64,000 nucleotides of DNA from Anaerolineae bacterium (GTDB taxonomy: Bacteria; Chloroflexota; Anaerolineae; Aggregatilineales; UBA3940), in contig DAOTXW010000079.1 of the NCBI GenBank assembly GCA_034435035.1, positions 1,551 through 65,550 on the forward strand, written 5' to 3'. Position numbers and translations under genes: made by a program. Of the stretch, positions 3,527-36,568 are shown piece by piece. The notes below the pieces were generated by a model. That model was not told the origin of the DNA, searched no databases, and was given only the letters and a program-made list of their open reading frames with translations. Each line of letters opens with the position of its first letter. The first letter of the stretch is position 1.

Positions 3527-5929
3527 TTACGGCGACCTATGGATCTGAAGCGTCCGCAACACCAGATGATCTTGGACCAGGTCTGACCCCGATACGCTGA
3601 CGGGCAGGCGTTCAAGCGAGGGCCAGCTGTAGATCACGACCCAGATCTGGTACTCGCCAGGAGGAAGTGTCTCCGGCAGAATGAAGCCATAGTTGTCGCG
3701 GATCGGCTCGCCGGGCTGCCATTGACTGGTCGGGGCAAACCCCATCACTGGCGCCCGATCCTGCTGGAGCACTACCTGTCCTGCCTCATTGATGAGATAC
3801 ACCGCGAAGGTGTAGTCAGCCTCAATGGCGCTGCCTGACCGCCATAGTAGCGACACACCCAGCCCAGCGCCGGGCTGCAGACGATCGAGCGATGCCTGCG
3901 GCTTATTCATCACCAGATCGTATCCTACCAGACGGATCGAGCTGCCAAAGCGTGCGGTTGAGGGGTTGGCGGGCGGAGCATCTGCCGAAGGAGCCCGCAG
4001 GGGCACATACTGCACGAGCCGCACCAGCGGGGTATAGTCCACTGCTCCTGCCGGAAACGCAGCGGTTGCCACGAAATGCTCCACCGGACGGGTAGCGCAG
4101 GGGACCAGCGGCCCATTATCCGAAACCAGCCAGCCAACCGGGTTCTGTTGCTGAACGCGCCCAATCATGCTCACTGAGACCGGATCGATCTGTTCGTCCA
4201 GTTTGTGTGAAAGCACGTCCGGGATGTGTTCGCAGCTGTAACGTTCGCCTGGAGAGAGGGGCAGGCTATACCACAGCGTGCGCCCTTTGAAGTAGTTCAT
4301 GAAGTGCGGCACATAGTGGGGTGTAGTCAGAAAGATCACGTCATCAGGCCCCGCCCTGGCCAGCAGATCGGCTCTCAGTGCATGCAGATCCTGGTTATGT
4401 CCCTCAAAGCGTGGATCGGGATAAGCCCGGGCCAGAAGGATCAGGGTCGCTCCAGCAGTCAGCAGCGGCAGCGATCCTGTGACCAGCCGGGACCTGTGTG
4501 ACAGGTCGCCCTGGAGGCGGAGCCTGGTCAGCCAGATCGCGGCAGCAGTTATGGAGATCGCGACCACAAATAGGGATACAAGGTCGGCCCGCGGCCACAA
4601 CCAGACTATATCCGGGGTTGCCAATGGCAAGAACAGCAGGCTGCCCAGGGCCTGAGACCAGCGCACGCTCCAGATAATCGCATCATTCCAGGGCGTCAGA
4701 CCGGTAGCCATCTGCTGATACCCATAATACTCGTGAACATTGACGTACAGGCCGCCTGCCTGAACCAGTAGCCCGCACAGCGCCAGGCCCCCCAGCAAGA
4801 CGCAGGGAAGTCTGCGGCGTGCGCTCAGGATGCGGTCAAGCAGCGGCAGGGCGCCCAGCATCAGAAACGGGGTGAGGGGCAGCATATAGCGTGCGCCCCA
4901 GCCGGCCCCTCCGTGCCACAGCTCTTGCCGGATGGCGCCATAGACCAGGGCGAATGCCAGCGCCAATATCAACGGGAGCCACGCCTCGCGCCAGCGGCTG
5001 CGCCCGGCAACAAGCGGCGCAGCCAGCGACATCATCAGCACCGGTGAGTACCAGAAGACTCCCTTGGCCGGGCTGAACAGATAACCCAGTGTGGGGTACC
5101 AGGCTTTGGGCAGACCTTCGGCAAAGTCGCTCAGCCGGGCAAGCACCTCATATCGGCCGGTGACTGCTTCCCACTGTTCACGGTAGAACACAACCCCCAG
5201 GGCCAGCCCTGTTATCAGAATGGCCAGCACTGCCGCGATGATGAATATCTCGCGTCGTCGGCTTGCCAGGATAGCCCCGCCGGGATAGGCCATCAGCAGC
5301 AGGACAGGCAGCGCGATTAGCGTCGCTTCCTTGCTGAGCAGTGCCAGCACCACCGTGAAAATCCCGATCGCCAGCCATTTCCAGTGCCGATGCTCATGTG
5401 CCTGAAACGCGTGTCGCCACCGGTCAAGGCAAAAAGCAGCCGCCAGCAGATTCAATGTAGTCAGGGGCTCGCGGAAGAAAGTCTTGGTATAGGGCACCGC
5501 AATAGTGGTCAGGCCAAAAAGCAGCGCGGCAGCCAGCGCTGTGCGTTCCCGGTAGCCCAACTCCAGTGCGAAGGCGAATACCAGCATGGCCGTGAGCGCC
5601 GTGATCGCCGGGTTGAACAGATAGATGGCATGGACGTTGCCGATCCAGGGGATCTGGTAAGCCAGCCAGTAAAGCGGAACGGCCAGGATAGGCTGAGCAG
5701 GCTCTACGTCAGTGGTTTGCAGGCCGCGGAGGTAGACGGTTTCGTTCAGCAGCAGCCTATCCGGCCCGGTGCGTACAGTGAAACTATCCGTTGTATCGAT
5801 GATGAACTGCTCATCGTCTGACCGGAACATGCCGGAGAAGCCCAGCATATAAACCATAAACAGCAGAACCCCGAGCGCCAGCGCGATCCAGGCATGCCGG
5901 GATCGATTAGAGGACAGAATAGCGATCAT
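3527..5929 (-). CDS. GT-C fold membrane glycosyltransferase (GT39/GT83, ArnT/PMT-like) with a large C-terminal soluble domain
   Basis: More than 10 hydrophobic helices. An acidic SDDE motif follows TM1 directly, as in the first external loop of GT-C enzymes. A ~300-aa C-terminal non-membrane domain follows. The ATGA start/stop overlap with the upstream gene (5926-5929) favours a start at 5929 over the ORF-track 5983. Confidence 0.6.
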   Translation of the reverse strand: MIAILSSNRSRHAWIALALGVLLFMVYMLGFSGMFRSDDEQFIIDTTDSFTVRTGPDRLLLNETVYLRGLQTTDVEPAQPILAVPLYWLAYQIPWIGNVHAIYLFNPAITALTAMLVFAFALELGYRERTALAAALLFGLTTIAVPYTKTFFREPLTTLNLLAAAFCLDRWRHAFQAHEHRHWKWLAIGIFTVVLALLSKEATLIALPVLLLMAYPGGAILASRRREIFIIAAVLAILITGLALGVVFYREQWEAVTGRYEVLARLSDFAEGLPKAWYPTLGYLFSPAKGVFWYSPVLMMSLAAPLVAGRSRWREAWLPLILALAFALVYGAIRQELWHGGAGWGARYMLPLTPFLMLGALPLLDRILSARRRLPCVLLGGLALCGLLVQAGGLYVNVHEYYGYQQMATGLTPWNDAIIWSVRWSQALGSLLFLPLATPDIVWLWPRADLVSLFVVAISITAAAIWLTRLRLQGDLSHRSRLVTGSLPLLTAGATLILLARAYPDPRFEGHNQDLHALRADLLARAGPDDVIFLTTPHYVPHFMNYFKGRTLWYSLPLSPGERYSCEHIPDVLSHKLDEQIDPVSVSMIGRVQQQNPVGWLVSDNGPLVPCATRPVEHFVATAAFPAGAVDYTPLVRLVQYVPLRAPSADAPPANPSTARFGSSIRLVGYDLVMNKPQASLDRLQPGAGLGVSLLWRSGSAIEADYTFAVYLINEAGQVVLQQDRAPVMGFAPTSQWQPGEPIRDNYGFILPETLPPGEYQIWVVIYSWPSLERLPVSVSGSDLVQDHLVLRTLQIHRSP

Positions 5930-6960
5930 AAAGGAGGCGGTACAGTGTGGATGTCGGCTGCGGAGGTGCTTTTGAACCGCCACTCAAGCCAGATCAACCC
6001 GGCGATGAAGGTGACTGCCAGGCCGGCGAGGATCAGACGGGCCTGCAATGGCGTGGCGTCGCGCAGCATCAGGGCAATCAGCCCCAGCGTGGCAGCTATA
6101 ATGTAGAGAGTCATCACGGCACGGGCAGGCGGCATTCCCATGACGGACATTAATCGATGCGAAAAATGATCTTTGCCGCCTTGATAGATGGGGGTGCGCC
6201 GCCGGATGCGCGAAAGCACCACCAGCGTGGTATCAAAGATGGGCAGGCCCAAGATGACAACAGGTATCATCCAGGTGACTTCGAGCGGGCGCCCCGTAAA
6301 CTCCAGCTTGATCCCCAGCACAGCCAGTACAAACCCCAGCAGCAGGCTGCCGGCGTCGCCCATGAACAAAGTCGCCGGACTGAAGTTGTAGTAGAGAAAT
6401 CCAACACACGCTCCCAGCGTGGCTGCTGCCAGGCTGGCTACCAGACCCAGCCCTTCTACTACCGCCACGGTGAAGAAGAAGCCACTGGCCACCATGGCGA
6501 TGCCCGCAGCCAATCCATCCATATTGTCCAGAAAGTTGAGCGCGTTGCAGATGCCGATCACCCAGAAGAAGGTCATCCCTACATTGAGCACATGAGAATG
6601 AAACAGGGTGACCTGAATGCCAGACCACACCAGTATACTGGCAGCCGCAAGCTGGCCTGCCATCTTGAAAAGTGGGCGCATCCCACGGCGATCATCCCAC
6701 AACCCAACCGCGGTTACAATCGTTGCTCCACCGAGCACTCCCAGCACTTCCTGATACTCACGGATGCTGCTCACGGCCATCGCGGTGACCAGGCCGATAT
6801 AGATCGCCACACCGCCAAGCATTGGCACCGGAGCGACGTGCAGCTTACGTGCCTCCGGGTTGTCAACAAAATTAATAGCCTGAGCCAGTTTGCGGATCAG
6901 GGGGGTGGCAATGAAGGAGATCAGGCCCGATGCAAGTATCACTGGGATGAACACACTCAT
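5926..6960 (-). CDS. Polyprenyl-phosphate HexNAc-1-phosphate transferase (MraY/WecA/TagO family)
   Basis: Polytopic protein with family motifs LWDDRRGM, NALNFLDNMDGLAAG and FMGDAGSLLLGF. It is the likely initiating transferase of the cluster. ATGA overlap with the upstream gene at 6957-6960. Confidence 0.85.
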   Translation of the reverse strand: MSVFIPVILASGLISFIATPLIRKLAQAINFVDNPEARKLHVAPVPMLGGVAIYIGLVTAMAVSSIREYQEVLGVLGGATIVTAVGLWDDRRGMRPLFKMAGQLAAASILVWSGIQVTLFHSHVLNVGMTFFWVIGICNALNFLDNMDGLAAGIAMVASGFFFTVAVVEGLGLVASLAAATLGACVGFLYYNFSPATLFMGDAGSLLLGFVLAVLGIKLEFTGRPLEVTWMIPVVILGLPIFDTTLVVLSRIRRRTPIYQGGKDHFSHRLMSVMGMPPARAVMTLYIIAATLGLIALMLRDATPLQARLILAGLAVTFIAGLIWLEWRFKSTSAADIHTVPPPL

Positions 6961-8204
6961 AGTCGCCTATCCTCAGCGGGATGGCCGTCCGGCACCGGAG
7001 AGCCCGCGTCTATTCCCTTCTGCGCCAGCAGCTCAGTATAGAGACTGCGAATATCTGATACCAGGCGCTCGACACCATATTGCGCCAGTGCCTGCCGGCG
7101 CGCCTCCGCCAGCCGCGCAGATTGATCTGATGCCAGAATGTGAATGACTGCCTGCGCCAATGCCCCGGCGTCGTCCGGCGGCACCAATTCGCCATAGGCG
7201 CCACCGCCCAGCACATCGGGAACCCCCCCGACAGCGGTTGCGATAACCGGGACGCCTGCCGCCATCGCTTCGATGATAGACACGGGGGTACCCTCGTTGC
7301 GCGACGAGATCACCAGTGCATCAAGGTCGGCATAGATGGCCGGCAAATCATCGCGCCAGCCAGTGAAGTACATACAGTCACTCAGGTTCAGTCTCTCTGC
7401 GAGCGCCTTCAGTTCATCAAGGCGTTCGCCCCCACCCACGACAACAAATCGGGCTTGGGTGATCTGGCTGCGAATTATCTGGGCCGCATTGAAAAAAAGG
7501 TCGTGGTTTTTGATCGGCACCAGCCGACCGATAATACCGATCAGCGGCGCTTCTGTCGAGATTCCCAGCTCGTTCCGGAGGGCGCCCTGCAGAGCATCGG
7601 CTCCCGCAAAGGGAGCCAGGTTCAGCCCGAGAGGCAAAACACGGATGCGTGTCGGCGGGGCGATCCGGAACGCCAGCAAATCGTCACGCAGACCATCGCT
7701 GATGGTCAGCACCGCATCAGACAGGCGGGCAGCCGCCCGTTCCAGCCACAGGAACATCTGTGTGCGCAGCGGGCCGAAGTAGCCGCGGAAGACATGTCCG
7801 TGAAATGTATGCACAATCACCGGCACGCGACACACGTAGGCTGCCAGTCGGCCGATCAGCCCGGCTTTGGCAGTATGTGTATGCACAACCTCCGGTCGCT
7901 CGCGCCTGATCAACCGGATCAGATCCACCAACGCGCGCAGGTCACTGAGCGGGGCGATTTCGCGCTGCATAGTAGAGATGATGATCGGCTCAATGCCCAG
8001 ATCATGGGCCAGGTAGGTCATGTCGCCTTCGTGCTCCCCGATCTGGCCGGTCACCAGGGTGGTCCAGAACTGCTCATCACGCAGGGCTCCGGTCAGCAGA
8101 GCCACGTGGATCGCTGGCCCGCCGATATTCAGCCGGGCAATAATGCGCATCACCCGGATAGGTCTGCCGGACCGGCAATCTGCTGTCTGGGCCTGACGGG
8201 TCAT
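6957..8204 (-). CDS. Glycosyltransferase, GT-B fold (GT4 family)
   Basis: N-terminal MRIIARLNIGGPAIHV and C-terminal EGTPVSIIEAMAAGVPVIATAVGG (E-x7-E-type donor-binding region). ATGA coupling at 8201-8204; an internal Met at 8150 is an alternative start. Confidence 0.8.
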   Translation of the reverse strand: MTRQAQTADCRSGRPIRVMRIIARLNIGGPAIHVALLTGALRDEQFWTTLVTGQIGEHEGDMTYLAHDLGIEPIIISTMQREIAPLSDLRALVDLIRLIRRERPEVVHTHTAKAGLIGRLAAYVCRVPVIVHTFHGHVFRGYFGPLRTQMFLWLERAAARLSDAVLTISDGLRDDLLAFRIAPPTRIRVLPLGLNLAPFAGADALQGALRNELGISTEAPLIGIIGRLVPIKNHDLFFNAAQIIRSQITQARFVVVGGGERLDELKALAERLNLSDCMYFTGWRDDLPAIYADLDALVISSRNEGTPVSIIEAMAAGVPVIATAVGGVPDVLGGGAYGELVPPDDAGALAQAVIHILASDQSARLAEARRQALAQYGVERLVSDIRSLYTELLAQKGIDAGSPVPDGHPAEDRRL

Positions 8205-9142
8205 TGTTTGCGATACCAGTCAACGGTAAGACGCACCCCTTCAAGGAAGGGAATCGTCGGCTCATATCCCATGCGCTGGCGCGCCTTGCTGATATCTGCC
8301 CGTGAGTGTCGGATATCACCGGAACGCGCCTCAGCATAGTGAGGCGCAATGCCGCAGCCTGTGATCTCCTGCAGGATCTCCACCAGCTGGTTCAGCGAGA
8401 CCTGCCCCCCGGCTGCCAGATTGAAGACCTCCCCGGACACCTGGTGGGCAGGCGCCCGCGCAGCCAGCAGATTAGCCGCCACAACGTTGCCAACATAGGT
8501 AAAGTCGCGGGTCTGCTCGCCATCCCCATAGATCACCGGTGGCTGCCCGTGGAGCAGTGCACTGATGAAACGTGGAATCACCGCTGCATAGGCGCTGCCG
8601 GGGTCCTGCCGCGGGCCAAACACATTGAAATAGCGCAGGCATACCGTCTCAAGACCGTAGACATGGGTGAACACCTGGCAGTATCGTTCAGCCGCCATCT
8701 TAGCCACCCCATAGGGTGAGATTGGCCGGGGGACCATCGTCTCGGTCTTGGCCAGATCAGGGTCTTGATCACCATAGATGGAGGAGGAGGAGGCGTAGAT
8801 CACGCGCCGTACGCCAGCTTCGCGGCTGGCCACCAGCACATGCAGCGTAGCGTTGACATTCGCCATGTTCGACTCGACCGGGTCAGATACTGAGCGCGGC
8901 ACAGAAGGGATCGCGCCGTGATGCAGTACCACCTCCATGTCGCGCACAGCCCGCCGGACGTCATCCAGCACGGTCAGATCGCCTTCCAGCAGATCGATCT
9001 GCCCAGTCACGTCGGCCAGGTTTTCCCGCTTACCCGTTGAGAAGTTGTCCAGCACCCGCACCGCATGGCCCTGCTCCAGCAGGGCCCGCACCAAGTTAGA
9101 TCCGATGAACCCTGCGCCGCCGGTTATCAGAAAGTTCGTCAC
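8201..9142 (-). CDS. NAD-dependent nucleotide-sugar epimerase/dehydratase (extended SDR)
   Basis: Rossmann motif ITGGAGFIGSNL, catalytic SSSSIYG...YGVAKMAAE (YxxxK), and FNVFGPRQDP typical of UDP-sugar 4-epimerases. Confidence 0.8.
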   Translation of the reverse strand: MTNFLITGGAGFIGSNLVRALLEQGHAVRVLDNFSTGKRENLADVTGQIDLLEGDLTVLDDVRRAVRDMEVVLHHGAIPSVPRSVSDPVESNMANVNATLHVLVASREAGVRRVIYASSSSIYGDQDPDLAKTETMVPRPISPYGVAKMAAERYCQVFTHVYGLETVCLRYFNVFGPRQDPGSAYAAVIPRFISALLHGQPPVIYGDGEQTRDFTYVGNVVAANLLAARAPAHQVSGEVFNLAAGGQVSLNQLVEILQEITGCGIAPHYAEARSGDIRHSRADISKARQRMGYEPTIPFLEGVRLTVDWYRKQ

Positions 9143-9167: not shown

Positions 9168-11069
9168 TCAAGTGAAGTAGCGCTGCATCCACAGCTCAAA
9201 TGTCAGCAGGGCCCAGAGCGCCTGCCCGAGATCGCTCCTGCCCTGCTGATGCGCATCGAGCATGGCGCGCACGGACTGAATCTGCAAAATCCCACGCCCG
9301 GCCGCCGCCGGGCTCAACAGGGTCTGACGCGCAAAGGCTGCCAGCTCACCGCGAAACCAGGATCCCACCGGCACGCCGAAACCGTGTTTCTGGCGATGGA
9401 TAATCCCCTCAGGCAACAGACCGCGCAGCGCACGCTTCAGGATGTATTTCTTCACACCGTGCCTCAGCTTCAGGCGAAGGGGGATGCGCGCGGCGTATTC
9501 GAACAGAATATGATCAAGGAAGGGGGCGCGGGCTTCCAGCGAGACAGCCATGCTGCACCGATCGACTTTCACCAGCAGGTCTTCCGGTAGATAGGTTTTC
9601 AGGTTCACATCCAGCAGCTGCGCCACGGCTTCATCAGCGTGACGGTCATTGTGCGATGTGAAATAGGTTCGGTAATGCCCCTGAACGGCTTTCTCGCTGC
9701 CGGCTCCCACCAGGGCCACCACCCATCGCGAAGGCACATAGCGCACCCAGCTCAGGTAGCGCTCCGGCATTTCCAGCCCTACCGTCTGCGCAAACCGGCC
9801 TGCCCGCCGAATGAGCCCGCGATAGTGCGTCGTCTCGGGCAGTCTATCAAGAGTATGGGCAACGGCATGCTGCAGCGGCCGCGGTATCCGTTCATACAGC
9901 CGACTGAGCTGCGCCGCGCGGAATCGATCGTAGCCGGCGAACAGTTCATCTCCCCCATCCCCCGTCAACGCTACGGTGACATGCTGGCGCGCCAGCTTGC
10001 TGACCAGGTATGTGGGGATGGCCGATGAATCGCCAAATGGCTGGTCGTGGTGCCATACCAGCTCGCCAACCAGGTTCAGAACATCAGGCCGCACGATGAA
10101 CTCATGGTGTTCGGTGGCAAACTGCGCAGCGACCTGGCGTGCATAGGGAGTTTCATCAAACGAAGGCTCGTCTTCAAACCCGATCGAGAAAGTCCTGACC
10201 GCGTGAGAGCTGGCCTGCGCCATCAGAGCAACTACAGCCGCCGAGTCCAGGCCGCCGGACAGAAACGCACCCAGCGGGACATCAGCCAGCATCCGCATCT
10301 GCACGGCTTCCCGAAGCTGATTCAGCAAGCCGGAGGTGATTTCCTCCTCATCGACTGCTGCATCAACCACTGGATAGGGCGCTTCCCAGAAGGGTTTAAT
10401 ACTCACCTTTGCACTGCCATCGCCCAGATCGGCCGTCAGCAGCATTCCAGGGCTCAGTTGGTGAATCCCTTCAAACAGCGTATCAGGCGCAGGCGCGTAT
10501 CCATAGGCAAGATAGTGCGGGATCAGGGATCGGTTGAGGCGGGCTGTCACCGCGGGGTGCTGCAGAAGTGCCTTGATCTCTGAGCCGAAGACCAGCCAGC
10601 CGGTGTCCTGCCAGTAGTACAGCGGCTTCTCGCCCAGCCTGTCGCGCGCCAGCACTAGCCGGCGCCGCCGGGCATCCCAGATAGCCAGCGCAAACATGCC
10701 ACGAAACGGCTGGATAAAGGCCGGCGCACCATGCTGTATATAGGAGCGCAGGAGCGTCTCGGTATCAGAGTGCGAGAAGAAGCGGTGCCCGGATTCTTCC
10801 AGGGAAGCTCGCACACTGCCAAAGTTGTAGACCTCGCCGTTATAGGCGATCCAGGTATCCCCTGCTGGATGGACGACATGCATTGGCTGGTGGCCGGCTG
10901 CGCTGAGGTCAATCACAGCCAGCCGGGTATTGGCGAGGCCGCACGGTCCGCACACGACAGCACCGGAGTCGTCTGGCCCCCGGTGTGCCAGTGTCCGCAC
11001 CATGCGCTCCAGCACACTCTGATCGGCCTGTTGGCCATGGAAGGAAAGCATCCCGGCGATACCGCACAT
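9168..11069 (-). CDS. asnB: Asparagine synthase (glutamine-hydrolysing)-type amidotransferase, copy 1
   Basis: Begins MCGIAGM (Cys2 nucleophile), so the start is placed at the internal ATG 11069, not 11138. The synthetase domain carries the PP-loop-like FLSGGLDSAAV. Confidence 0.85.
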   Translation of the reverse strand: MCGIAGMLSFHGQQADQSVLERMVRTLAHRGPDDSGAVVCGPCGLANTRLAVIDLSAAGHQPMHVVHPAGDTWIAYNGEVYNFGSVRASLEESGHRFFSHSDTETLLRSYIQHGAPAFIQPFRGMFALAIWDARRRRLVLARDRLGEKPLYYWQDTGWLVFGSEIKALLQHPAVTARLNRSLIPHYLAYGYAPAPDTLFEGIHQLSPGMLLTADLGDGSAKVSIKPFWEAPYPVVDAAVDEEEITSGLLNQLREAVQMRMLADVPLGAFLSGGLDSAAVVALMAQASSHAVRTFSIGFEDEPSFDETPYARQVAAQFATEHHEFIVRPDVLNLVGELVWHHDQPFGDSSAIPTYLVSKLARQHVTVALTGDGGDELFAGYDRFRAAQLSRLYERIPRPLQHAVAHTLDRLPETTHYRGLIRRAGRFAQTVGLEMPERYLSWVRYVPSRWVVALVGAGSEKAVQGHYRTYFTSHNDRHADEAVAQLLDVNLKTYLPEDLLVKVDRCSMAVSLEARAPFLDHILFEYAARIPLRLKLRHGVKKYILKRALRGLLPEGIIHRQKHGFGVPVGSWFRGELAAFARQTLLSPAAAGRGILQIQSVRAMLDAHQQGRSDLGQALWALLTFELWMQRYFT

Positions 11070-11094
11070 GGTTAAGCCCTGTTCGCCTGCGCCA

Positions 11095-13610: not shown

Positions 13611-13956
13611 GCACGCGCATGCCCAGCAGGGCGATATGCTGGGCAGCCTGTTTGTTTTCGCGGGTCAGACGCGTGATCACCATGGAGAACTGCAGGAGGA
13701 TAAGCATCAGCAGCCCGAAGCCAATCACAAACAGGGCGGCTGGCGGGTAAAAGATTCCCATCTGCTCTGCGATGATATAGAGTACCGTATCCCGGAAGAT
13801 GGTCAGGAAGATCAACAGCACACAGGTAGCCAGCCACAGTAGCGAATAATCTTCGCGGAGGCGGCGCCTCCGCACCAGTTCAATGACCAGGATGAACATA
13901 GCCGCCGGGACGGCCAGCATTAGAATCGCCGGTCGGGAAATCTCTTTAAGCGCCAT
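13570..13956 (-). CDS. DUF2304-like small membrane protein
   Basis: Start taken at MALKEISRP (ATG 13956). Pattern: TM, then RRRRLREDYSLLWL, two further TM helices, and a C-terminal amphipathic tail. This resembles DUF2304 proteins that accompany GT2 polyprenol-P-sugar synthases. Confidence 0.6.
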   Translation of the reverse strand: MALKEISRPAILMLAVPAAMFILVIELVRRRRLREDYSLLWLATCVLLIFLTIFRDTVLYIIAEQMGIFYPPAALFVIGFGLLMLILLQFSMVITRLTRENKQAAQHIALLGMRVRELERQLDSTRRE

Positions 13957-20422: not shown

Positions 20423-20654
20423 TTATGTGGGACATACAGAAAGGATAATACAGCCGCAACTAGGGTCAGCGGCTGCTCCGACTCACTTCAGGTCATCTAT
20501 TATCCTAAACAATTTCGGCTCTCCGTACCACCAGCCGCCCACCCTCATCCTGTCCGCGCTGTGTGCGCCGGCAAATCCCTTACGGAGCCAGATGCCCCTC
20601 ACCTCCGCATGTGGATGTGCACATTTGCGGTGCGCCGGGGCTGGCAGAATACTG

Positions 20655-28924: not shown

Positions 28925-28937
28925 CGTGCCCGATCAT

Positions 28938-30164: not shown

Positions 30165-31235
30165 TCATTCGCGGGAGGCGCGCTCCGCCAGCTGAGCGCG
30201 AGCGCGCAGCAGCAGATCGCGGTTCTGCTGAGCCCAATCAAACAGACGTCGGACCCCGTCCTGAACACGAACAGATGGCTGCCAGCCCAGCACCCGCCTG
30301 GCTTTGCCGATGTCACTAACATAGACCCGCTGATCGCCAGGGCGCCAATCATCATAGCGGATCTGCATCGATCTACCCCTCAGCGCCTCAAGCATGGCGA
30401 TCAGGTCGAGCAGCGAGATCACCTGCCCCGCCCCTCCGCCGATATTGAATATTTGCCCGACAGCGGCCTCAGGCTTAGCGATCACAGCCTGATAGGCATC
30501 CACCAAGTCGTCGATGTACAGGACATCCCGCACCTGCCTGCCGTCGCCAAACAGAGTCAGTGGCAGGTCCAGCACTGCTGCCAGCGTGAAATAGGCCAGC
30601 CAACCCTGATCTTCGACCCCAAACTGCCAGATGCCATAGATGCAGGACTGCCGGAAAACAGTCGTGCGCAGGCCGTAAATGCGTGCATAGTCACGCATGT
30701 ATTGATCGCCGGTCCCTTTCGAACAACCATAGGGGGAGTGAAAATCTACAGGCTGACTCTCCGGTACGCCATCCAGTAGCCCGACATACTGATAGCGCCC
30801 CTCGATCAGCTCCGTCCCGATATCCTCCATGCCACCATACACCTTGTTAGTCGACGTGTACAGGATGATCGGGTTGTGGGTCTCGCTCAGGGTCTCACGC
30901 GCTGCTTCCAGCACATTGAAGGTTCCCAGGGCATTGGCTTCAAAGTCATGGCGGGGGTTGGTCACCGACTTGGTCACCGCGGTCTGCCCTGCTGCATGCA
31001 GAACCGCATCTGCCGCAGCCACATGGGGCAGCAGGGCAGCATAATCCCTGACATCTGCCTCTACAAAGGTCAGAGCAGCAGCCGACGGGTGCTGGCGGAT
31101 CCAGTCCAGATTCAGGCTCGCGCCAATCCGCGACATGTTGTCGAACACGGTGACTGCCCAGCCCATCTCCAGAAAGCGTCGTGCCGTGTGACTGCCGATA
31201 AACCCGGCGCCGCCGGTGACCAGTAAACGCGGCAT
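30165..31235 (-). CDS. Extended-SDR nucleotide-sugar epimerase, CDP-paratose 2-epimerase (RfbE)-like
   Basis: VTGGAGFIGSH, FDNMSRIGASLNLDWI, DFHSPYGCSKGTGDQYMRDYARIYGL and GDGRQVRDVL match, from memory, the CDP-tyvelose/paratose 2-epimerase subfamily pattern. Confidence 0.75.
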   Translation of the reverse strand: MPRLLVTGGAGFIGSHTARRFLEMGWAVTVFDNMSRIGASLNLDWIRQHPSAAALTFVEADVRDYAALLPHVAAADAVLHAAGQTAVTKSVTNPRHDFEANALGTFNVLEAARETLSETHNPIILYTSTNKVYGGMEDIGTELIEGRYQYVGLLDGVPESQPVDFHSPYGCSKGTGDQYMRDYARIYGLRTTVFRQSCIYGIWQFGVEDQGWLAYFTLAAVLDLPLTLFGDGRQVRDVLYIDDLVDAYQAVIAKPEAAVGQIFNIGGGAGQVISLLDLIAMLEALRGRSMQIRYDDWRPGDQRVYVSDIGKARRVLGWQPSVRVQDGVRRLFDWAQQNRDLLLRARAQLAERASRE

Positions 31236-31237: not shown

Positions 31238-31906
31238 TCAGTTCTGCCCCATTCGTTCGCCAACGTAGATGATATCGGGGGCCACCTGCTGGTTATGGAA
31301 GACCCCGATCCGGTGCAGCCCGGTCAGCAGATAGCGGGCTGCCTGGCGGGCCACCCGGCCTCCACGCACAAACTCGGCCAATGCCAGCAGGATCGTCTGG
31401 CTCCCTTCCAGGGTAACGAGCAGCGTGTGGAAGCCAAACGCTTCGACAACCCCGCGCAGCCTGTCCGGAGTGTATTCCCGCACATGCGTCCTGTCGATGT
31501 AATGCAAATAGGTCAGCCCATAAATCGGCAGGGGGCCAGCGTCACTGTGCGGCACCGAGATAATCACACGCCCGCGGCACACCCGCGAAACTTCCCGCAG
31601 GATGCCACTTTCGTCCTGAAGATGCTCCAGAATGTCGTACATTACGACGACGTCGAATGCCTGGTCTGGAAAGGGCAGCGGCGCAGTGATCTCGCGCTCC
31701 AGCATCTGGATACGCGGATCCTCCACACGATTCGTCTGGTCGATCCCGGTGACCTGAAAGCCTGCGTCAGCCAGGGCACTGGCATACCACCCTCGCCCGC
31801 AGCCGAGATCCAGCGCAGTCCTGCCCGTTGCGTAGCGGTGCAAGTATTTCATCTTAGCATTCGAGGGGCTGTTCATCCAGCCAACATTCTGAGGAACCAT
31901 AGACAT
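31238..31906 (-). CDS. Class I SAM-dependent methyltransferase
   Basis: SAM-binding motif I ALDLGCGRGWYASALADAGFQVTGID and a post-I acidic residue. Size and layout are typical of Methyltransf_11/23-type enzymes. Confidence 0.75.
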   Translation of the reverse strand: MSMVPQNVGWMNSPSNAKMKYLHRYATGRTALDLGCGRGWYASALADAGFQVTGIDQTNRVEDPRIQMLEREITAPLPFPDQAFDVVVMYDILEHLQDESGILREVSRVCRGRVIISVPHSDAGPLPIYGLTYLHYIDRTHVREYTPDRLRGVVEAFGFHTLLVTLEGSQTILLALAEFVRGGRVARQAARYLLTGLHRIGVFHNQQVAPDIIYVGERMGQN

Positions 31907-31946
31907 CCATCAGGCGGCAGGTCTGCGTGGGCGTTGCACCCGTGCG

Positions 31947-31974
31947 ATTGTAACATGCTGACTTATTCCTGCAA
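31947..31974 (-). promoter_or_regulatory. Candidate sigma70-type promoter inside the cluster (upstream of the methyltransferase gene)
   Basis: Minus-strand reading: TTGCAG, a 16-nt spacer, then TGtTACAAT (extended -10). It lies in a 227-nt AT-richer gap. Sequence pattern only. Confidence 0.3.
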
Positions 31975-32065
31975 CCCTGATGCGCTCTCTCAGATTAAAC
32001 AGCTCAGTCGCATTTAGGGATGCCCCGGTTTCCGCTGGGCGCATATTCCCATTCCATGCTGCCAG

Positions 32066-32091
32066 AAATCAAAACAGGCGGCCAGAGCCTG
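32066..32091 (-). terminator. Weak candidate intrinsic terminator after the GT pair
   Basis: Minus-strand reading: caggc-tctggcc-gcctg followed by TTTTGATTT. The stem is only 5 bp. Confidence 0.3.
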
Positions 32092-32133
32092 GTAAAGTAT
32101 CGCCAGGGTGCAACGCCCTATCGACTGGTGTGG

Positions 32134-33297
32134 TTATGCGTCATCAGCTGTACTTGGTGCTTCTGCCGCCAGCGTGCGGTAGTGACCGGCTAGCTCCCGT
32201 TGATAAGCCTGCCACGTGAACTGCTGGACGTAGCTATGCGCCGATCGGCCCATCTCGCGGCGTAGATGTTCATCTCTGTAAAAGCGCAGCAGTCGATCCG
32301 CCAGGGCGTCAGGGTCCCGTATGGGGATCACATATCCATCCTGCCCGTCGCGAATGGCAGCGCCGACATTCTCTGTGACGATGACGGGCAGGCCGCAGGC
32401 AGCAGCCTCATACACCACCATACCGAAGCCTTCCTCGATGGATGGCAGAGCCAGCACAGAAGCCGAGTTGTACAGCGCGGGAAGCTGCTCCTGTGGCACA
32501 AAGGGCACGTGCCGATAGAGTCCCTCGTAGCGGGGCAGAAATACCCGGCTGTCGGCACCTTTCCATCCGACCAGAACCAGTTCCGCATCTGGCAGATTCA
32601 GGCGCCGAAAAGCTTCCAGCAGATACTGGACGCCCTTGCGGAGGCAGATCAGGCCGACAAACATCACCCGGAACGTGCGGTTGGTGCGGGCTGCCGGGCT
32701 AAAACGCGCCGGATCAAATCCGAGGTGGACCCGGCGCAGACGCGCCTCAGGGATGCCCTGCGACAGCATCGTCCGGGCAACAAAGTCTGAACAGACTGCG
32801 ATGGCATCAGCTTCTTCATACTCCTGCATATGGCGGCGTATCAGCCAGTGCATACCAGCAGGATAAGGAATGCCATAGCGGTCGAACTCCTCGCGCATCA
32901 GCGAGTCCTGCACCAGGGGGTGGGCGCTGGATCGCTCGATCAGGATGCGAGCGCCCATCCGGCGAGCCCGTCGGAGCGAGTAGAGACTCATGTGATTCCA
33001 GCCGTGGAACACTTCTGCGGGCACTAGATGCTGGCTCGCCAGCCAATCATAGAGGCGGTCACGGATCAGGTAGGAGAAGTACTGGCTGTTGGGGCTGGGG
33101 AAGTACTGGATGGCCTGGCCGATCAGGTTGGGCAGCGGCACACGACGGATCAGCGCCGGATCAATTCCGCGTTCACGTGGATCAGCGATGCCGATAATGA
33201 AACGACGCAGATACCCCGCAGCCGCGGCACCCCGGGCAGCATGATAGGCATGGAACACCCCGCCTGAGGAGATCACGACACGGATATCTGAGGTCAT
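32134..33297 (-). CDS. Glycosyltransferase, GT-B fold (group 1), paralog A
   Basis: C-terminal EEGFGMVVYEAAACGLPVIVTENVGAAIRDGQDGYVIP. Collinear with the next gene, ~75% identical by eye in the C-terminal half. Confidence 0.75.
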   Translation of the reverse strand: MTSDIRVVISSGGVFHAYHAARGAAAAGYLRRFIIGIADPRERGIDPALIRRVPLPNLIGQAIQYFPSPNSQYFSYLIRDRLYDWLASQHLVPAEVFHGWNHMSLYSLRRARRMGARILIERSSAHPLVQDSLMREEFDRYGIPYPAGMHWLIRRHMQEYEEADAIAVCSDFVARTMLSQGIPEARLRRVHLGFDPARFSPAARTNRTFRVMFVGLICLRKGVQYLLEAFRRLNLPDAELVLVGWKGADSRVFLPRYEGLYRHVPFVPQEQLPALYNSASVLALPSIEEGFGMVVYEAAACGLPVIVTENVGAAIRDGQDGYVIPIRDPDALADRLLRFYRDEHLRREMGRSAHSYVQQFTWQAYQRELAGHYRTLAAEAPSTADDA

Positions 33298-34454
33298 CGG
33301 CGATCACTCGACTCCGCACACAGGTTGTCATAGTGCGCCTTCAGCTCCTCATGATAAGCCTGCCAGGTGAACCGCTGGACAAACTCGCGGGCAGACTGCC
33401 CCATTTCATGGCGGAGGCGCTCATCGCGGTACAGGCGCAGCAGGCGGTCGGCCAGGGCATCAGAGTCGCGGATGGGCACAACGAAGCCATCCTGCCCATC
33501 GCGGACCGCGGCGCCGACGTTCTCCGTGATGATGACTGGCAGCCCGCAGGCTGCGGCTTCATAAACCACCATGCCAAACCCATCTTGCAGGGAGGGTAGC
33601 ACAAACACGGACGCGCTGCTGTACAGCTCGGGCAGCTGATCCTGGGGTACGAACCAGATATGGCGGAACAGACCCTGGTAGCGGGGCAGGAACGATCGGC
33701 TGTCCGGGTAGGCCCCGCCGACAAATACCAGCTCGGCATCAGGCAGATTCAGCTGCCGAAAGGCTTCGAGCAGATACTGCACGCCTTTCTGGAGGCTGAC
33801 TGACCCCACGAATAGAATACGGAACGGGCGTGCGGTGCGGACACCGGGGACGGGTGCGAAGCGCTCCGGCGCAAAGCCCAGATGCACCCGGCGCAGCTTG
33901 GTCTCCGGGATGCCGCTGGCAACCATCGTACGCCAGACAAAATCCGAGGGCACCATAATGGCATCGGCCAGGGCGTACTCGTCCAAATGCTTCTGAATAA
34001 CCAATCTGTCGCCCTGCGGGAAACGTAGGCCGTAGCGGGCGTATTCTTCGGCCAGCAGGTTGTGCGTTAGAACCGGGTGGGCCGACGAACGCTCGACAAT
34101 GGTTTTCATCCCCAGCTGCCGTGCCCGGCGCATTGAGTACAAGCCAAAGTGATTGAAGACATGGAAAATATCGCCGCCGTCTACATAACGACGCGCTAGC
34201 CAGTCATAGAGGTTGTCACGGACGTAATACTGGATATACAGGCTGAGGCCGCCCGGCAGTCGGCGTATTATCTGCCCGAGCAGCTCCGGCACGATCACCT
34301 GGCGGACACGCGAGCGGTCGATGCCGACCTCATGCCGATCATAGAAGCCGGTGATGAAGCGTTTCAGGTAGCCGGCTTTCTGTGCACCGCGAGCGAGATG
34401 GTAGGCATGAAACTGCCCGCCTGAGGAGACGATGATATCGAGCGCATGCCGCAT
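33294..34454 (-). CDS. Glycosyltransferase, GT-B fold (group 1), paralog B
   Basis: C-terminal QDGFGMVVYEAAACGLPVIITENVGAAVRDGQDGFVVP. ATGA overlap with paralog A at 33294-33297. Confidence 0.75.
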   Translation of the reverse strand: MRHALDIIVSSGGQFHAYHLARGAQKAGYLKRFITGFYDRHEVGIDRSRVRQVIVPELLGQIIRRLPGGLSLYIQYYVRDNLYDWLARRYVDGGDIFHVFNHFGLYSMRRARQLGMKTIVERSSAHPVLTHNLLAEEYARYGLRFPQGDRLVIQKHLDEYALADAIMVPSDFVWRTMVASGIPETKLRRVHLGFAPERFAPVPGVRTARPFRILFVGSVSLQKGVQYLLEAFRQLNLPDAELVFVGGAYPDSRSFLPRYQGLFRHIWFVPQDQLPELYSSASVFVLPSLQDGFGMVVYEAAACGLPVIITENVGAAVRDGQDGFVVPIRDSDALADRLLRLYRDERLRHEMGQSAREFVQRFTWQAYHEELKAHYDNLCAESSDRR

Positions 34455-34470
34455 GGGGCTATCCCCGGCT

Positions 34471-34504: not shown

Positions 34505-34551
34505 TCCGGTAAATCCAGGTCAGCTTGCCCCTCACCGGGCTGCCGGCGGCT

Positions 34552-34734
34552 TTAGAACAGCGTGTAGATAAACGGCCCAACACCCGAAGCCGAGGCAAAA
34601 ATCAGGAGAAAGCCGAACAGCAGCAGCACAACCACCATCGGGATCAGCCACCACAGCTTGCGGGCCCACAGGAACTTAAGAAACTCCCCCACGATGCCGA
34701 GATTATTGCCCATATTCTTGAAAAACTGGATCAT
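34552..34734 (-). CDS. Small membrane protein, DUF5989-like (carbamoyltransferase-associated)
   Basis: Start taken at MIQFFKNMGNNLGIVGEFLKFLWARKLWWLIPMVVVLLL (ATG 34734), preceded by GGAGTGGAGA. It has one TM and sits directly downstream of a NodU/CmcH carbamoyltransferase, the usual context recalled for this family. Confidence 0.6.
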   Translation of the reverse strand: MIQFFKNMGNNLGIVGEFLKFLWARKLWWLIPMVVVLLLFGFLLIFASASGVGPFIYTLF

Positions 34735-34783
34735 CGTCTCCACTCCTGCCGGGAGCCAACCCGGCCCCAATCATCTACCCCCG

Positions 34784-36568
34784 TTACTTGAGGGCATCCT
34801 TGAAGATCATGAAATGGTCCATTACCAGCAGCTCCAGCGCGCCCTTGTAGAATGTATTGAATGCGTTCTGGGGGGTCGTGACGATCGGCTCGCCACGCAG
34901 GTTAAAGCTGGTGTTCAGCAAGACAGGGACACCTGTAGCCTGGCCAAAGCGCTCAATCAGCCCATAGTACCACGGGTTATCGCTGCGCCTGACCGACTGC
35001 AGGCGGCCTCCGCCGTTAACATGCGTTACCGCCGGAATCAAGCTCTGCTTGTCCGCCGGGATCGGGCGTACCACCAGCATGAAGCGGGGTGTATGCTGGC
35101 CCTCGTACTTGCCCATATCAAAGAACTCTGCGGCTCGCTCTTCCGCCACCACCGGCGCAAAGGGGCGGAAAGGCTCGCGGAACTTAATCTTGAGGTTGAC
35201 GATCTCTTTCATCTCAGGGCGGCGTGGGTCGGCCAGAATGCTGCGGTTGCCAAGCGCCCTGGGACCCCATTCAAAGCGGCCCTGGCTCCAGCCCACCACA
35301 CCACCGTTGACCATAGTCTCGACGGTGCGGTCAAGCAGCTTATTCTCATCCTCGACATATTCATAGGGGATGTTCTGGCTGTCGAGGAAAGCCCTGATCT
35401 CGGCGGCCGAATACTCCTTGCCCCAGTAAGCATTGTCCATGATCAGCTTACGCGGCTGATTGAGGAGCACGTGATAGGCATACAGCGCCGCGCCCAGGGC
35501 TCCGCCTGCATCACCGGCTTCGGGCTGAATGTACATTTCTTCAAAGGGAGTTTCGTCCAGGATGCGACCATTGGCGACGCTGTTGAGCGCCACGCCCCCA
35601 GCCATCACTAGCCGCTTGGAGCCAGTGCGCTGGTAAGCATAATTAGCCATACGGATCATGGCTTCTTCCGTGACCACCTGGATGCTGGCAGCGATGTCAG
35701 CAAAACGTTCGTTTTCCTTGACTTCGGCCCCATTCCGTCCCGGGTGGGTCTTGGAGGTGAAAAACTCCGATTCACGTTTGCGCTGCGGCCCGAAAAGATC
35801 CACAAAACGGCGGTTGTACGTATATCGGGGCGAGTAGTGGAAGCTAAAGTAATCCATGTTCAGGCGGAAGCTGCCATCATCGGCGAGGTGGAAGGTCTTA
35901 TAGACCTTATCCGTATAGCGCGGCTCGCCAAAGGGCGCCATGCCCATCACCTTGTACTCACCCTCATTGACTTCAAAGCCCAGATAAGCAGTGAAGGCGG
36001 AGTACAGCAGCCCAAGTGAGTGGGGGAAGCGAGTCTCACTGAACAGCTCGATATGGTTAGGCTGTGTGCCATCAAAGCTCCCGGTAGCATGGCCGATGGT
36101 GGCGGTCGTCCACTCCCCCACGCCATCAATAGTCACCACCGCTGCCTCGTCGAAGGGCGAAGCAAAGAATGCGCTCGCGGCATGCGACATGTGATGCTCG
36201 GCAAACAGGAGCTTCTCAGACGGTATCCTGAGCTTGTCCAGAAGCTGGCTCTTGATCCACAGCTTTTCATTGAACCAGGCAATCATTGATTCACGAAACA
36301 CGCCGATGGACTGCGGATAAGTGCCAAGAGTGCTTAAAAGGATGCGCTCGAACTTGAGGAGGGGCTTCTCATAGAATACCGCATAGTCAAGATCGTTCGC
36401 GGTGATGCCGGCCGCTTCCAGGCAGAAATCGATGGCCAGGTTGGGGAAGCCGGAGTCATGCTTCTTGCGGGAGAAGCGTTCCTCCGCTGCCGCGGCGATC
36501 AGCTCGCCATCTTTGAGGATGCAGGCCGCCGCATCGTGATAATAGCAGGATATTCCCAGAATATACAT
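34784..36568 (-). CDS. Carbamoyltransferase, NodU/CmcH family
   Basis: MYILGISCYYHDAAACILKDGELIAAAAEERFSRKKHD N-terminus (ASKHA/Kae1-like fold). C-terminal YrdC-like carbamoyltransferase region NTSFNLRGEPIV. Confidence 0.9.
   Translation of the reverse strand: MYILGISCYYHDAAACILKDGELIAAAAEERFSRKKHDSGFPNLAIDFCLEAAGITANDLDYAVFYEKPLLKFERILLSTLGTYPQSIGVFRESMIAWFNEKLWIKSQLLDKLRIPSEKLLFAEHHMSHAASAFFASPFDEAAVVTIDGVGEWTTATIGHATGSFDGTQPNHIELFSETRFPHSLGLLYSAFTAYLGFEVNEGEYKVMGMAPFGEPRYTDKVYKTFHLADDGSFRLNMDYFSFHYSPRYTYNRRFVDLFGPQRKRESEFFTSKTHPGRNGAEVKENERFADIAASIQVVTEEAMIRMANYAYQRTGSKRLVMAGGVALNSVANGRILDETPFEEMYIQPEAGDAGGALGAALYAYHVLLNQPRKLIMDNAYWGKEYSAAEIRAFLDSQNIPYEYVEDENKLLDRTVETMVNGGVVGWSQGRFEWGPRALGNRSILADPRRPEMKEIVNLKIKFREPFRPFAPVVAEERAAEFFDMGKYEGQHTPRFMLVVRPIPADKQSLIPAVTHVNGGGRLQSVRRSDNPWYYGLIERFGQATGVPVLLNTSFNLRGEPIVTTPQNAFNTFYKGALELLVMDHFMIFKDALK

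Follow-up and report, generated by a model that had tools for sequence, protein, structure and literature searches.

The 64-kb stretch of DNA analysed here (the window: positions 1,551 to 65,550 of contig DAOTXW010000079.1, assembly GCA_034435035.1, from an Anaerolineae bacterium) contains a cluster of 25 genes, at positions 3527-36568, that probably directs the synthesis of a lipid-linked envelope glycan (Table 1). Based on a listing of open reading frames (ORFs) and on Pfam scans, all of the genes form an unbroken chain on the minus strand, with a coding density of 98% after refinement of the starts, and the Pfam and NCBIfam scans gave a family match for every one of the 25. The original prediction, which had been made from the sequence alone, had described just such a single-strand cluster, and this description is borne out. 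The public record's own gene calls in the 15.6-37.5 kb half are likewise all on this strand, and the large plus-strand ORFs left uncalled there are read as antisense shadows of the DNA, which has a GC content of 61% over the window. The strand assignment is based on homology and on these public gene calls; the GC content of third codon positions (GC3) was unable to tell the coding strand from the shadow ORFs. No tRNA and no Rfam match was found in the 64-kb window.

The gene contents agree with the inventory given previously: one WecA/TagO-like initiator, eight GT-B and three GT2 glycosyltransferases, three GT-C membrane proteins, two AsnB-type amidotransferases, two epimerases of the short-chain dehydrogenase/reductase (SDR) type, and one each of a bi-domain oxidoreductase, a heparinase-like protein, a methyltransferase and a carbamoyltransferase. 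The total of 25 was also right, although it is reached only with the DUF2304 and DUF5989 genes, which had not been described.

All seven of the gene junctions quoted in the original prediction are correct, namely the minus-strand ATGA overlaps at 5926-5929, 6957-6960, 8201-8204, 27566-27569 and 33294-33297, the GTGA at 21881-21884 and the TGATG at 12211-12215. The remaining junctions are mostly overlaps (8 nt for TuaH-like/OxRed, 20 nt for the short GT2/TuaH-like and 11 nt for DUF2304/short GT2) or gaps of less than 50 bp, the exceptions being gaps of 268 bp between Hepar and GT4c (20387-20654), 233 bp between MT and GT4f (31901-32133) and 97 bp between GT4g and DUF5989. Co-transcription fits with the tight overlaps and the high coding density. 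Sites found in the promoter and terminator scans were overall no commoner than in shuffled sequence, and only two of them are placed where a unit boundary is plausible: a promoter-like site (11/12 matches, minus strand, 36677-36649) upstream of the carbamoyltransferase, which is the first gene, and a terminator-like hairpin (32091-32075) inside the 233-bp gap, just downstream of GT4f. On its left the cluster is flanked by a response regulator gene in convergent orientation (2743-3450) followed by FtsK, and on its right by a divergent bifunctional-nuclease gene and a set of genes for the DnaB helicase and its loader. In relatives the counterpart of the 268-bp gap is far smaller, measuring 0-150 bp in L003, L008 and L019 (L numbers designate the loci of relatives).

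Table 1. Genes of the cluster at 3527-36568, in their order along the minus strand
Gene	Position	Strand	Assignment	Evidence
Carbamoyltransferase	34784-36568	-	O-carbamoyltransferase (NodU/CmcH type)	Carbam_trans_N 2.3e-82, Carbam_trans_C 3e-64 (Pfam)
DUF5989	34552-34734	-	60-aa single-helix membrane peptide beside the carbamoyltransferase	Called gene, PF19451; one hydrophobic helix in translation
GT4g	33294-34454	-	GT4 (GT-B)	Glycos_transf_1; GT4g/GT4f pair at 4e-34 and 7e-30
GT4f	32134-33297	-	GT4 (GT-B)	Glycos_transf_1; tandem paralogue of GT4g
MT	31238-31900	-	SAM-dependent methyltransferase; the conserved core starts here	Methyltransf_23 4e-17, Methyltransf_11 9e-16
SDR2	30165-31235	-	NDP-sugar epimerase/dehydratase (extended SDR)	Epimerase 6e-46
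GT4e	28938-30155	-	GT4	Glycos_transf_1; GT4e/GT4d pair at 9e-43 and 3e-35
GT4d	27566-28924	-	GT4 with C-terminal membrane helix	Glycos_transf_1; transmembrane segment near residue 410
GTC631	25674-27569	-	GT-C, 631 aa	ArnT-like membrane core and small C-terminal alpha/beta domain
AsnB2	23773-25671	-	Glutamine-dependent AsnB-type amidotransferase	Asn_synthase 1.9e-96, GATase_7 2.8e-47
GT2x2	22824-23783	-	Membrane-anchored GT2	Glycos_transf_2; GT2x2/GT2x1 pair at 2e-28 and 2e-26
GT2x1	21881-22831	-	Membrane-anchored GT2	Glycos_transf_2; tandem paralogue of GT2x2; C-terminal transmembrane helix in both
GT4c	20655-21884	-	GT4	Glycos_transf_1 2e-26, Glyco_transf_4 5e-21
Hepar	18101-20386	-	Heparinase II/III-like	Hepar_II_III_N 1.2e-43, Hepar_II_III_C 2e-39; PDB heparinase III 4mmi/5jmd
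OxRed	15913-18057	-	Bi-domain oxidoreductase, MDR/zinc-ADH-like N half and Gfo/Idh/MocA C half	ADH_zinc_N 1.2e-18, GFO_IDH_MocA 2.7e-26
TuaH-like	14724-15920	-	GT-B	Glyco_trans_1_4 2e-12
GT2_Ppg	13946-14743	-	Short GT2, polyprenyl-phosphate sugar synthase (PpgS/GacI/DPM1/ArnC type)	NCBIfam PpgS 6.8e-31
DUF2304	13570-13956	-	Small membrane protein, three helices (GacJ/Rv3632 family)	DUF2304 7e-20, 71.7 bits vs cutoff 25.5
GTC465	12213-13610	-	GT-C, 465 aa, directly downstream of the GT2-DUF2304 pair	PMT_2 1.4e-11
GT4b	11095-12213	-	GT4	Glycos_transf_1 1e-42; start overlaps GTC465 stop (TGATG)
AsnB1	9168-11069	-	AsnB-type amidotransferase	Asn_synthase 6.5e-110; TIGR03108 600 bits vs cutoff 817
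SDR	8201-9142	-	TviC/WbpP-like UDP-HexNAc(A) 4-epimerase	Epimerase 2e-66; NCBIfam TviC 3.3e-78, 263 bits vs cutoff 760
GT4a	6957-8204	-	GT4	Glycos_transf_1 2.5e-37
WecA-like	5926-6960	-	WecA/TagO-like polyprenyl-phosphate HexNAc-1-phosphate transferase (initiator)	Glycos_transf_4 4.6e-33, 114.9 bits vs cutoff 27
GTC818	3527-5929	-	GT-C, 800 aa as called, last gene of the cluster	PMT 8.7e-7, 29.2 bits vs cutoff 22.7

Nineteen of the genes constitute a core, MT-SDR2-GT4d-GTC631-AsnB2-GT2x-GT4c-Hepar-OxRed-TuaH-GT2-DUF2304-GTC465-GT4b-AsnB1-SDR-GT4a-WecA-GTC818, which recurs in the same order and orientation in many metagenome-assembled genomes (MAGs) of Anaerolineae/Chloroflexota. The identities are mostly 50-75% (40-55% for the GT4d/e copy), and the recurrence of the gene order at this divergence indicates that the genes are held together by selection. 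The carbamoyltransferase, in contrast, is the first gene of a variable accessory block, and this block with GT4f is inverted or absent in relatives. The single cluster of the original prediction really consists of a conserved 19-gene core and a variable carbamoyltransferase block. Within the core, the MT-SDR2 pair is kept in L003, L013, L016 and L017 and the GT2-DUF2304 pair in L021-L024 and L026, GT4c occurs in nearly all relatives (56-69% identity), and OxRed is 60-72% identical. In the window, as in all the close relatives, the WecA-like gene is the immediate neighbour of GTC818. Every relative examined has a GT4a homologue that either adjoins the 800-aa GT-C or lies one gene away, and the cluster ends in relatives at the same convergent response regulator. 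All named homologues of GTC631 and GTC818 belong to Anaerolineae or Chloroflexota MAGs. An exact copy of GTC631 was located in assembly GCA_964451875.1, on contig CAYVJV010000003.1 (387,846 bp), where the window matches positions 1507-65506.

Smaller assemblages of the same families also exist. A five-gene mini-module, WecA-SDR-GT4-AsnB(split)-fusion, is found in L025 (ERZ25039513 contig_6098, 4.18 Mb), in which the fusion gene at 10001-13564 encodes P0144, a natural GT4::GTC818-type protein of 1187 aa that ties a cytoplasmic glycosyltransferase step to an extracytoplasmic GT-C step in one polypeptide. L027 has GT4-GT4-GTC818 alone, without WecA, and members of the GTC631 family occur without the other cluster genes in L011 and L020. 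Three pairs of tandem paralogues are recognized in the window, GT2x1/2 (64% identical), GT4f/g (61%) and GT4d/e (48%), whereas most relatives have single copies, including mostly one copy of GT4d/GT4e. These duplications (21881-23783, 32134-34454 and 27566-30155) suggest that the glycan has diversified recently in this lineage.

The three polytopic proteins starting at 3527, 12213 and 25674 had been predicted to be GT-C enzymes, and in none of them did a flippase or polymerase profile match better than GT-C. By their predicted structures in the case of GTC631 and GTC818, and by profile comparison in that of GTC465, they are sugar-adding enzymes, predicted to face outward, and not transporters. 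GTC631 showed only a sub-threshold PMT_2 match (E = 0.0013) and no NCBIfam match, and a profile of its family (35 homologues) found ArnT (5ezm, E = 2.4e-6). Its AlphaFold (AF2) model (predicted local distance difference test score, pLDDT, 91.4; predicted template modelling score, pTM, 0.92) was closest in a Foldseek search to ArnT (5f15, 1.9e-9), followed by STT3/AglB/PglB, AftA, ALG9, Pmt4/PMT, DPY19, EmbB and PimE; the 36 best PDB matches are nearly all GT-C, with transporters ranked below (E > 0.2, low probability). The model of GTC818 (AF2, pLDDT 91.7) combines a membrane core with an alpha/beta domain on the extracytoplasmic side and a beta-sandwich at the C-terminus. Its membrane part resembles ArnT (5ezm, 1.2e-5), then STT3, DPY19, Pmt4, EmbA/B and ALG12/9, and the beta-sandwich (residues about 625-796) resembles the carbohydrate-binding domains (CBDs) of Wzt (about 5e-4 to 2e-3). 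A PDB sequence search with the family profiles of GTC818 and GTC465 gave no match, so structure was used for the former and profile-profile comparison for the latter: GTC465 passes PMT_2 (45.3 bits vs cutoff 26.1) and aligns to the GTC631 family in hhalign (94.7% probability, E = 6.4e-8).

Acidic residues are conserved in all three proteins: D134 (invariant), D126 and E132 (nearly invariant) of GTC631, in the loop 128-180; D39 (invariant) and E40 (nearly invariant) of GTC818, directly after the first transmembrane segment; and D60 of GTC465, which is invariant in three sequences and is aligned to the D-E of GTC818. These lie where the catalytic residues of GT-C enzymes are expected, in the first long extracytoplasmic loop. 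The WWD motif is absent from all three, and the only sequence match to the STT3 family was that of GTC465 (E = 1.4e-4, 20 bits vs cutoff 450). Emb-type GT-C enzymes likewise bear C-terminal carbohydrate-binding domains, and the Wzt-like sandwich of the GTC818 model, together with its Emb matches, points to a glycan rather than a protein as the probable acceptor. Each GT-C gene is at most one gene away from a GT4 gene (two are adjacent), and those of GT4d and GTC631 overlap by an ATGA.

In addition to these, the cluster encodes one clear candidate for the supply of lipid-linked sugar donors. The best NCBIfam match of GT2_Ppg is PpgS (polyprenyl-phospho-GalNAc synthase), followed by AglJ and then the dolichyl-phosphate (Dol-P)-hexose transferase, PgfS and ArnC. 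Since all of these matches are under the equivalog cutoffs (107 bits vs 370 for PpgS), the match appears to be to a type, the polyprenyl-phosphate sugar synthases, and not to an orthologue. Seven of the seven top PDB sequences are polyprenyl-phosphate glycosyltransferases (DPMS 5mlz at 2.5e-17, ArnC and GtrB), aligned over residues 22-248, which span the entire catalytic domain. In Streptococcus pyogenes, the DUF2304 protein GacJ assembles with GacI into a complex, reduces the Km of GacI for undecaprenyl phosphate (18.7 uM falling to 1.1 uM) and increases its Vmax more than 300-fold, after which the GT-C protein GacL transfers the sugar outside the membrane; Rv3632 has the same activating role for PpgS (bioRxiv 10.1101/180810). 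By analogy, the DUF2304 protein of the cluster is a putative activating partner of the upstream GT2, and GT2_Ppg, DUF2304 and GTC465 together resemble a GacI/GacJ/GacL-type (PpgS/Rv3632-type) module, from which it would follow that a part of the glycan, at least, is assembled outside the membrane. GTC465 directly follows GT2-DUF2304 in the window, L023 and L024, and a dedicated donor supply through the adjoining pair is plausible. It is absent from L026, which keeps GT2-DUF2304, so the donor is probably not used by GTC465 alone. No match to a dedicated flippase for polyprenyl-phosphate sugars (GtrA, Wzx or SMR type) was found in the cluster. The idea that three GT2 feed three GT-C was not supported: an eight-sequence profile of GT2x best matches chondroitin synthase and has its longest matches with PcManGT (6yv7, positions 6-216) and BcsA (positions 6-228), whereas DPMS, GtrB and ArnC align over the first 120 or so residues only.

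The remaining enzymes are those of initiation, chain extension and tailoring. The initiator, with about eight transmembrane segments, is nearer to WecA than to MraY (1.6e-33/116 bits vs 2.5e-15/57 bits in NCBIfam, both under the equivalog cutoffs). Likewise under their cutoffs are the top NCBIfam matches of SDR2 (dTDP-glucose 4,6-dehydratase, 9.6e-52, and GalE, 4e-44), MT (the mycofactocin oligosaccharide methyltransferase MftM, 1.2e-12), the TuaH-like protein (TuaH of teichuronic acid synthesis, 3.6e-30), the carbamoyltransferase (NodU, 3.9e-38) and AsnB2 (the XrtA/PEP-CTERM amidotransferase TIGR03108, 503 bits vs cutoff 817), which is 42% identical to AsnB1. The PDB matches of the C-terminal half of OxRed are sugar oxidoreductases. 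Hepar has no N-terminal hydrophobic stretch (hydropathy scan and inspection of the N-terminus) and is therefore probably cytoplasmic. The only other match of the DUF5989 peptide was a weak one to YnfA (E = 5e-4, 20 bits vs 114). A literature search for the combination of heparinase, bi-domain oxidoreductase and AsnB gave only unrelated papers.

The cluster had been noted as having no recognizable Wzx/MurJ-type flippase, Wzy polymerase, Wzz, O-antigen ligase or ABC-2 exporter, and at a threshold of E <= 0.01 in Pfam and NCBIfam we could not find any of them either, in the cluster or in the rest of the 64 kb: the ORFs of the window gave no match to MOP/Wzx, MurJ, Polysacc_synt, MATE-like, Wzy_C, Wzz, GtrA or ABC2_membrane. 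Likewise, the significant fold matches of the GTC631 and GTC818 models included no chain of MurJ, Wzx, WaaL, Wzy or Wzm, and the Wzt-like match of GTC818 concerns the soluble beta-sandwich alone and not the ATPase. The window contains a single ABC system, an importer of the Bmp-binding-protein/BPD_transp_2 type (41627-46984). Two hiding places for a flippase were considered and rejected. As for small ORFs, the coding density leaves 98% accounted for, DUF2304 is an activator family and DUF5989 has one helix; as for the surroundings of the cluster in relatives, the polytopic neighbours are CitMHS, a lactate permease, an SBF symporter, an MBOAT protein, a weak PMT_2 match and three proteins without a family. 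The absence of a linked translocase is a real and conserved feature. Unlinked flippases are common, however, and a missing linked flippase is frequent in loci of this kind, so we do not take it to indicate a new mechanism. The original prediction had proposed that export and transfer either use genes elsewhere or rely on GT-C enzymes acting outside the membrane; the former half seems to be the operative one, because GT-C enzymes are unable to replace a flippase.

Taken together, the most probable interpretation, in our judgement, is that the cluster makes a WecA-initiated, uronamide-containing, methylated and carbamoylated lipid-linked envelope glycan, which is finished outside the membrane by GT-C enzymes and whose translocation is encoded elsewhere. 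A glycan that is lipid-linked and carries amide, methyl and carbamoyl groups, with GT-C enzymes outside, had been proposed from the start, and remains the best reading; the suggested monoderm cell wall also fits, Anaerolineae belonging to a phylum generally regarded as monoderm, whereas specific support for the other suggested option, an S-layer or protein glycan, was lacking. On the enzyme families, folds, gene adjacency and synteny observed, we propose the following scheme for the chemistry and the order of steps. The WecA-like enzyme, assigned by family, would place an N-acetylhexosamine (HexNAc)-1-phosphate on polyprenyl phosphate at the inner face of the membrane, and up to eight GT4/GT-B enzymes and the two membrane-anchored GT2 would extend the chain in the cytoplasm. 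The TviC/WbpP-like 4-epimerase, the second SDR, OxRed and the heparinase-fold protein, all placed by family, may tailor the precursors or the growing chain, and the last of these may be uronate C5-epimerase-like. The two AsnB proteins would convert uronic acids to uronamides, as WbpS/WbtH do, and the methyltransferase and carbamoyltransferase would add further groups. SDR, AsnB and GT4 are the known recipe for glycans containing the amide of N-acetylgalactosaminuronic acid (GalNAcA), as in Pseudomonas aeruginosa O6 (WbpP/WbpS) and Francisella (WbtF/WbtH).

The lipid-linked chain would then, by necessity, cross the membrane by a flippase or ABC exporter outside the locus. In parallel, GT2_Ppg, aided by its DUF2304 partner, would make a polyprenyl-monophosphate sugar, and the three outward-facing GT-C enzymes may add residues from polyprenyl-phosphate donors to the exported glycan, although the donor, the acceptor and the order of action are conjectural. 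GTC818 may grip the polymer with its C-terminal carbohydrate-binding-like beta-sandwich, and the product would finally be anchored to peptidoglycan or lipid.

Several observations weigh against this scheme. Translocase, polymerase, chain-length regulator and LCP-type ligase are absent from the 64 kb, from the scanned polytopic neighbours in relatives and from the Pfam-annotated loci, which leaves the translocation and anchoring steps without an assigned gene. The uronamide assignment is weakened by the lack of a UDP-HexNAc 6-dehydrogenase in the cluster. Except for the generic asparagine synthase TIGR01536, all NCBIfam matches of the cluster are far under cutoff, so that the identities of the sugars are not fixed. 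Against three GT-C enzymes stands a single protein that is clearly a polyprenyl-phosphate sugar synthase. GT2x looks nearer to cellulose-synthase-like membrane GT2, and the pairing of GT2_Ppg with GTC465 is not obligatory, as the absence of the latter from L026 indicates. The likeness of the GTC818 sandwich to the Wzt CBD is modest (TM-score about 0.5), and unrelated immunoglobulin-like sandwiches score alike. Finally, the hairpin and the two gaps of more than 230 bp could divide the locus into two to three predicted transcription units.

Other explanations have been weighed against these data. In protein glycosylation, the cytoplasmic enzymes would build a lipid-linked oligosaccharide, and one GT-C would act on S-layer, secreted or other envelope proteins, either as an oligosaccharyltransferase or in the way of PMT-like O-glycosyltransferases. 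Such a pathway would explain why a Wzy polymerase or chain-length regulator is not needed (none is in the locus), and is consistent with the passing PMT match of GTC818, with the presence of STT3, AglB and PglB near the top of the structural matches for GTC631 and GTC818, and with AglJ, an enzyme of S-layer N-glycosylation, as the second-best NCBIfam match of the short GT2. It is nevertheless unlikely: the WWD motif is missing from the three GT-C proteins, the best match of both models is ArnT and not STT3, GTC818 ends in a carbohydrate-binding-like sandwich, neither the window nor the relatives have a linked gene for an S-layer or other large secreted protein, and likeness to the GT-C fold is uninformative about the type of acceptor. 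A lipoglycan similar to lipomannan and lipoarabinomannan (LM/LAM) or to the phosphatidylinositol mannosides (PIM) would instead start with a glycolipid primer made by a cytoplasmic GT4. The primer would be carried to the outside and lengthened there by GT-C enzymes that draw on polyprenyl-phosphate sugars, and the product would stay anchored in the membrane, without having been built on polyprenyl diphosphate. The most widely conserved unit, GT4 beside GTC818 (fused in L025, and alone without WecA in L027), suits this pathway, as do the polyprenyl-phosphate sugar synthase and the structural matches to EmbA/B and AftA, and in the mycobacterial LM/LAM and PIM pathways the flippases are also unassigned. 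However, the WecA-like gene that adjoins GTC818, in every close relative as well as in the window, argues for a polyprenyl-diphosphate-linked intermediate, and the many cytoplasmic glycosyltransferases and tailoring enzymes suit a complex repeat or oligosaccharide better than mannan-like extension, which makes the lipoglycan quite unlikely.

It also seems improbable that the 33 kb comprise two to four co-located modules with different products, such as WecA-SDR-GT4-AsnB-GT4-GT-C, GT2-DUF2304-GT-C, oxidoreductase-heparinase-GT-AsnB-GT-C and the carbamoyltransferase block. In many MAGs the 19 core genes are arranged in the same order and direction with protein identities of only about 40-75%, junctions between the supposed modules overlap (TuaH/OxRed, GT2/TuaH and the TGATG of GT4b/GTC465), and there is one initiator for 11 elongating glycosyltransferases. 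Such a division is suggested by the first of these modules standing alone in distant genomes (L025 and L027), by the GTC631 family without other genes in L011 and L020, by the inversion or loss of the carbamoyltransferase/GT4f block, which the 233-bp gap with its hairpin sets apart, and by the 268-bp gap before the heparinase-like gene. Translocation could, alternatively, be non-canonical, with a membrane-anchored GT4/GT-C pair, or an unrecognized protein elsewhere, coupling cytoplasmic synthesis to transfer outside, with no Wzx, ABC or synthase route involved, and building a still-uncharacterized outer polysaccharide layer of Anaerolineae-type Chloroflexota. This idea is based on the absence of a linked flippase or exporter in the relatives examined, the proximity of GT4 and GT-C and the one GT4::GT-C fusion, and we regard it as very improbable. 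It is scarcely credible that the missing flippase, polymerase or ligase is to be sought among the polytopic proteins, one of them having been misread as a GT-C. The sub-threshold PMT_2 match of GTC631, without an NCBIfam match, and the GTC818 family profile that finds no PDB sequence would leave room for it, but both models are confident and all of their significant membrane-domain matches are GT-C, the GTC631 profile finds ArnT, GTC465 passes PMT_2 and aligns to the GTC631 family, and no Pfam flippase or polymerase family was matched at the threshold used.

The locus is not orthologous to any of the systems with which we compared it, as the NCBIfam scores (bar TIGR01536) are far under cutoff and the transport and polymerase genes of those systems are absent here. 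The set of GT2, DUF2304 and GT-C is shared with GacI/J/L, which makes the N-acetylglucosamine side chain of the group A carbohydrate of S. pyogenes, and with PpgS/Rv3632 and its GT-C, which adds galactosamine to the arabinogalactan of Mycobacterium tuberculosis. In these systems the GT-C adds the sugar, on the outer side of the membrane, to a polymer whose synthesis WecA/GacO has initiated, and the same logic may hold in the present cluster. This locus differs in having neither a GacK-type Wzx nor a GacD/E-type ABC exporter, in the low PpgS score, and in having three GT-C enzymes where the others have one. In the mycobacterial EmbA/B/C and AftA-D, several GT-C enzymes likewise finish an envelope polymer outside from polyprenyl-phosphate donors, and GTC818 resembles Emb in its large extracytoplasmic C-terminal region with a carbohydrate-binding-like sandwich. 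However, ArnT and not Emb or Aft is the closest structure, sequence identity is 12-16%, no genes for the synthesis of arabinose or decaprenyl-phosphate-arabinose are present, and the phylum and the set of cytoplasmic enzymes are different.

The GalNAcA-amide O-antigens (P. aeruginosa O6 WbpO/WbpP/WbpS and Francisella WbtE/WbtF/WbtH) and the Vi antigen (TviB/TviC/TviE) are similar in that a TviC/WbpP-like 4-epimerase, AsnB and GT4 occur together, here beside a WecA-type initiator. They are different in that the cluster has no UDP-HexNAc 6-dehydrogenase, Wzx, Wzy or WaaL and that its matches are under the equivalog cutoffs. The tuaA-H genes of Bacillus subtilis, which direct an anionic wall polymer of a monoderm starting with a polyprenyl-phosphate sugar-phosphate transferase, include TuaH, the top match at 14724-15920, and TuaC and TuaG are among the NCBIfam matches of other glycosyltransferases of the cluster, all far under cutoff. 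The tua operon has no GT-C enzymes, and has its own Wzx-like TuaB and Wzy-like TuaE, neither of which is found in this cluster. The exopolysaccharide loci of the PEP-CTERM/XrtA type provide the top NCBIfam matches of both AsnB proteins (TIGR03108) and of several GT4 (stp1-3), all under cutoff, and the window showed neither an exosortase nor a PEP-CTERM protein. The phylum of the host is in general taken to be monoderm and to lack lipopolysaccharide (LPS) (PMC13319060).

Chloroflexota stain Gram-negative and are without LPS and BAM genes, and the layers outside their membrane (polysaccharide, protein and, in some, diderm-like) are still debated (PMC13319060). The 19-gene core found across many Anaerolineae is a concrete candidate for the source of one outer envelope layer. 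Anaerolineae are common in activated sludge and sediments, where surface glycans shape filament and floc behaviour. The result is at the level of annotation: the cluster is well conserved and mechanistically ordinary, and its enzyme families, as well as the kind of pathway, assembly on a polyprenyl carrier inside followed by GT-C decoration outside, are already known from streptococci and mycobacteria.

After the response regulator at the cluster end, the relatives L023 (15737-18670), L024 (13532-16435) and L026 (15926-18559) have a gene for a class A penicillin-binding protein (Transgly+Transpeptidase+Big_7), where the window has FtsK. Three large proteins encoded beside the cluster or beside GTC631 homologues in relatives have no Pfam family (E <= 0.1): an 848-aa protein in L026 (12413-14959, minus strand), a 524-aa protein with about seven transmembrane segments in L014 (6999-8573, plus strand) and a 495-aa protein with about eight in L020 (11981-13468, plus strand), of which the last two, being polytopic, may represent additional divergent GT-C enzymes or proteins of another kind. 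Adjoining the cluster in the window, the plus strand at 37493-40901 encodes the replicative helicase DnaB, a 228-aa protein that is DnaD-like and has a DnaB_2 domain, and an IstB/DnaC-like ATPase of 453 aa in which there are two separate stretches of AAA type, and such a doubled loader-like ATPase is unusual. Farther along, on the minus strand at 47323-55211, is a run of signalling-type genes, comprising a 584-aa ORF without a Pfam match, a 956-aa protein with PP2C_2 and fn3 domains, a weak Pkinase match, a second PP2C_2 protein and a VWA_2 protein.

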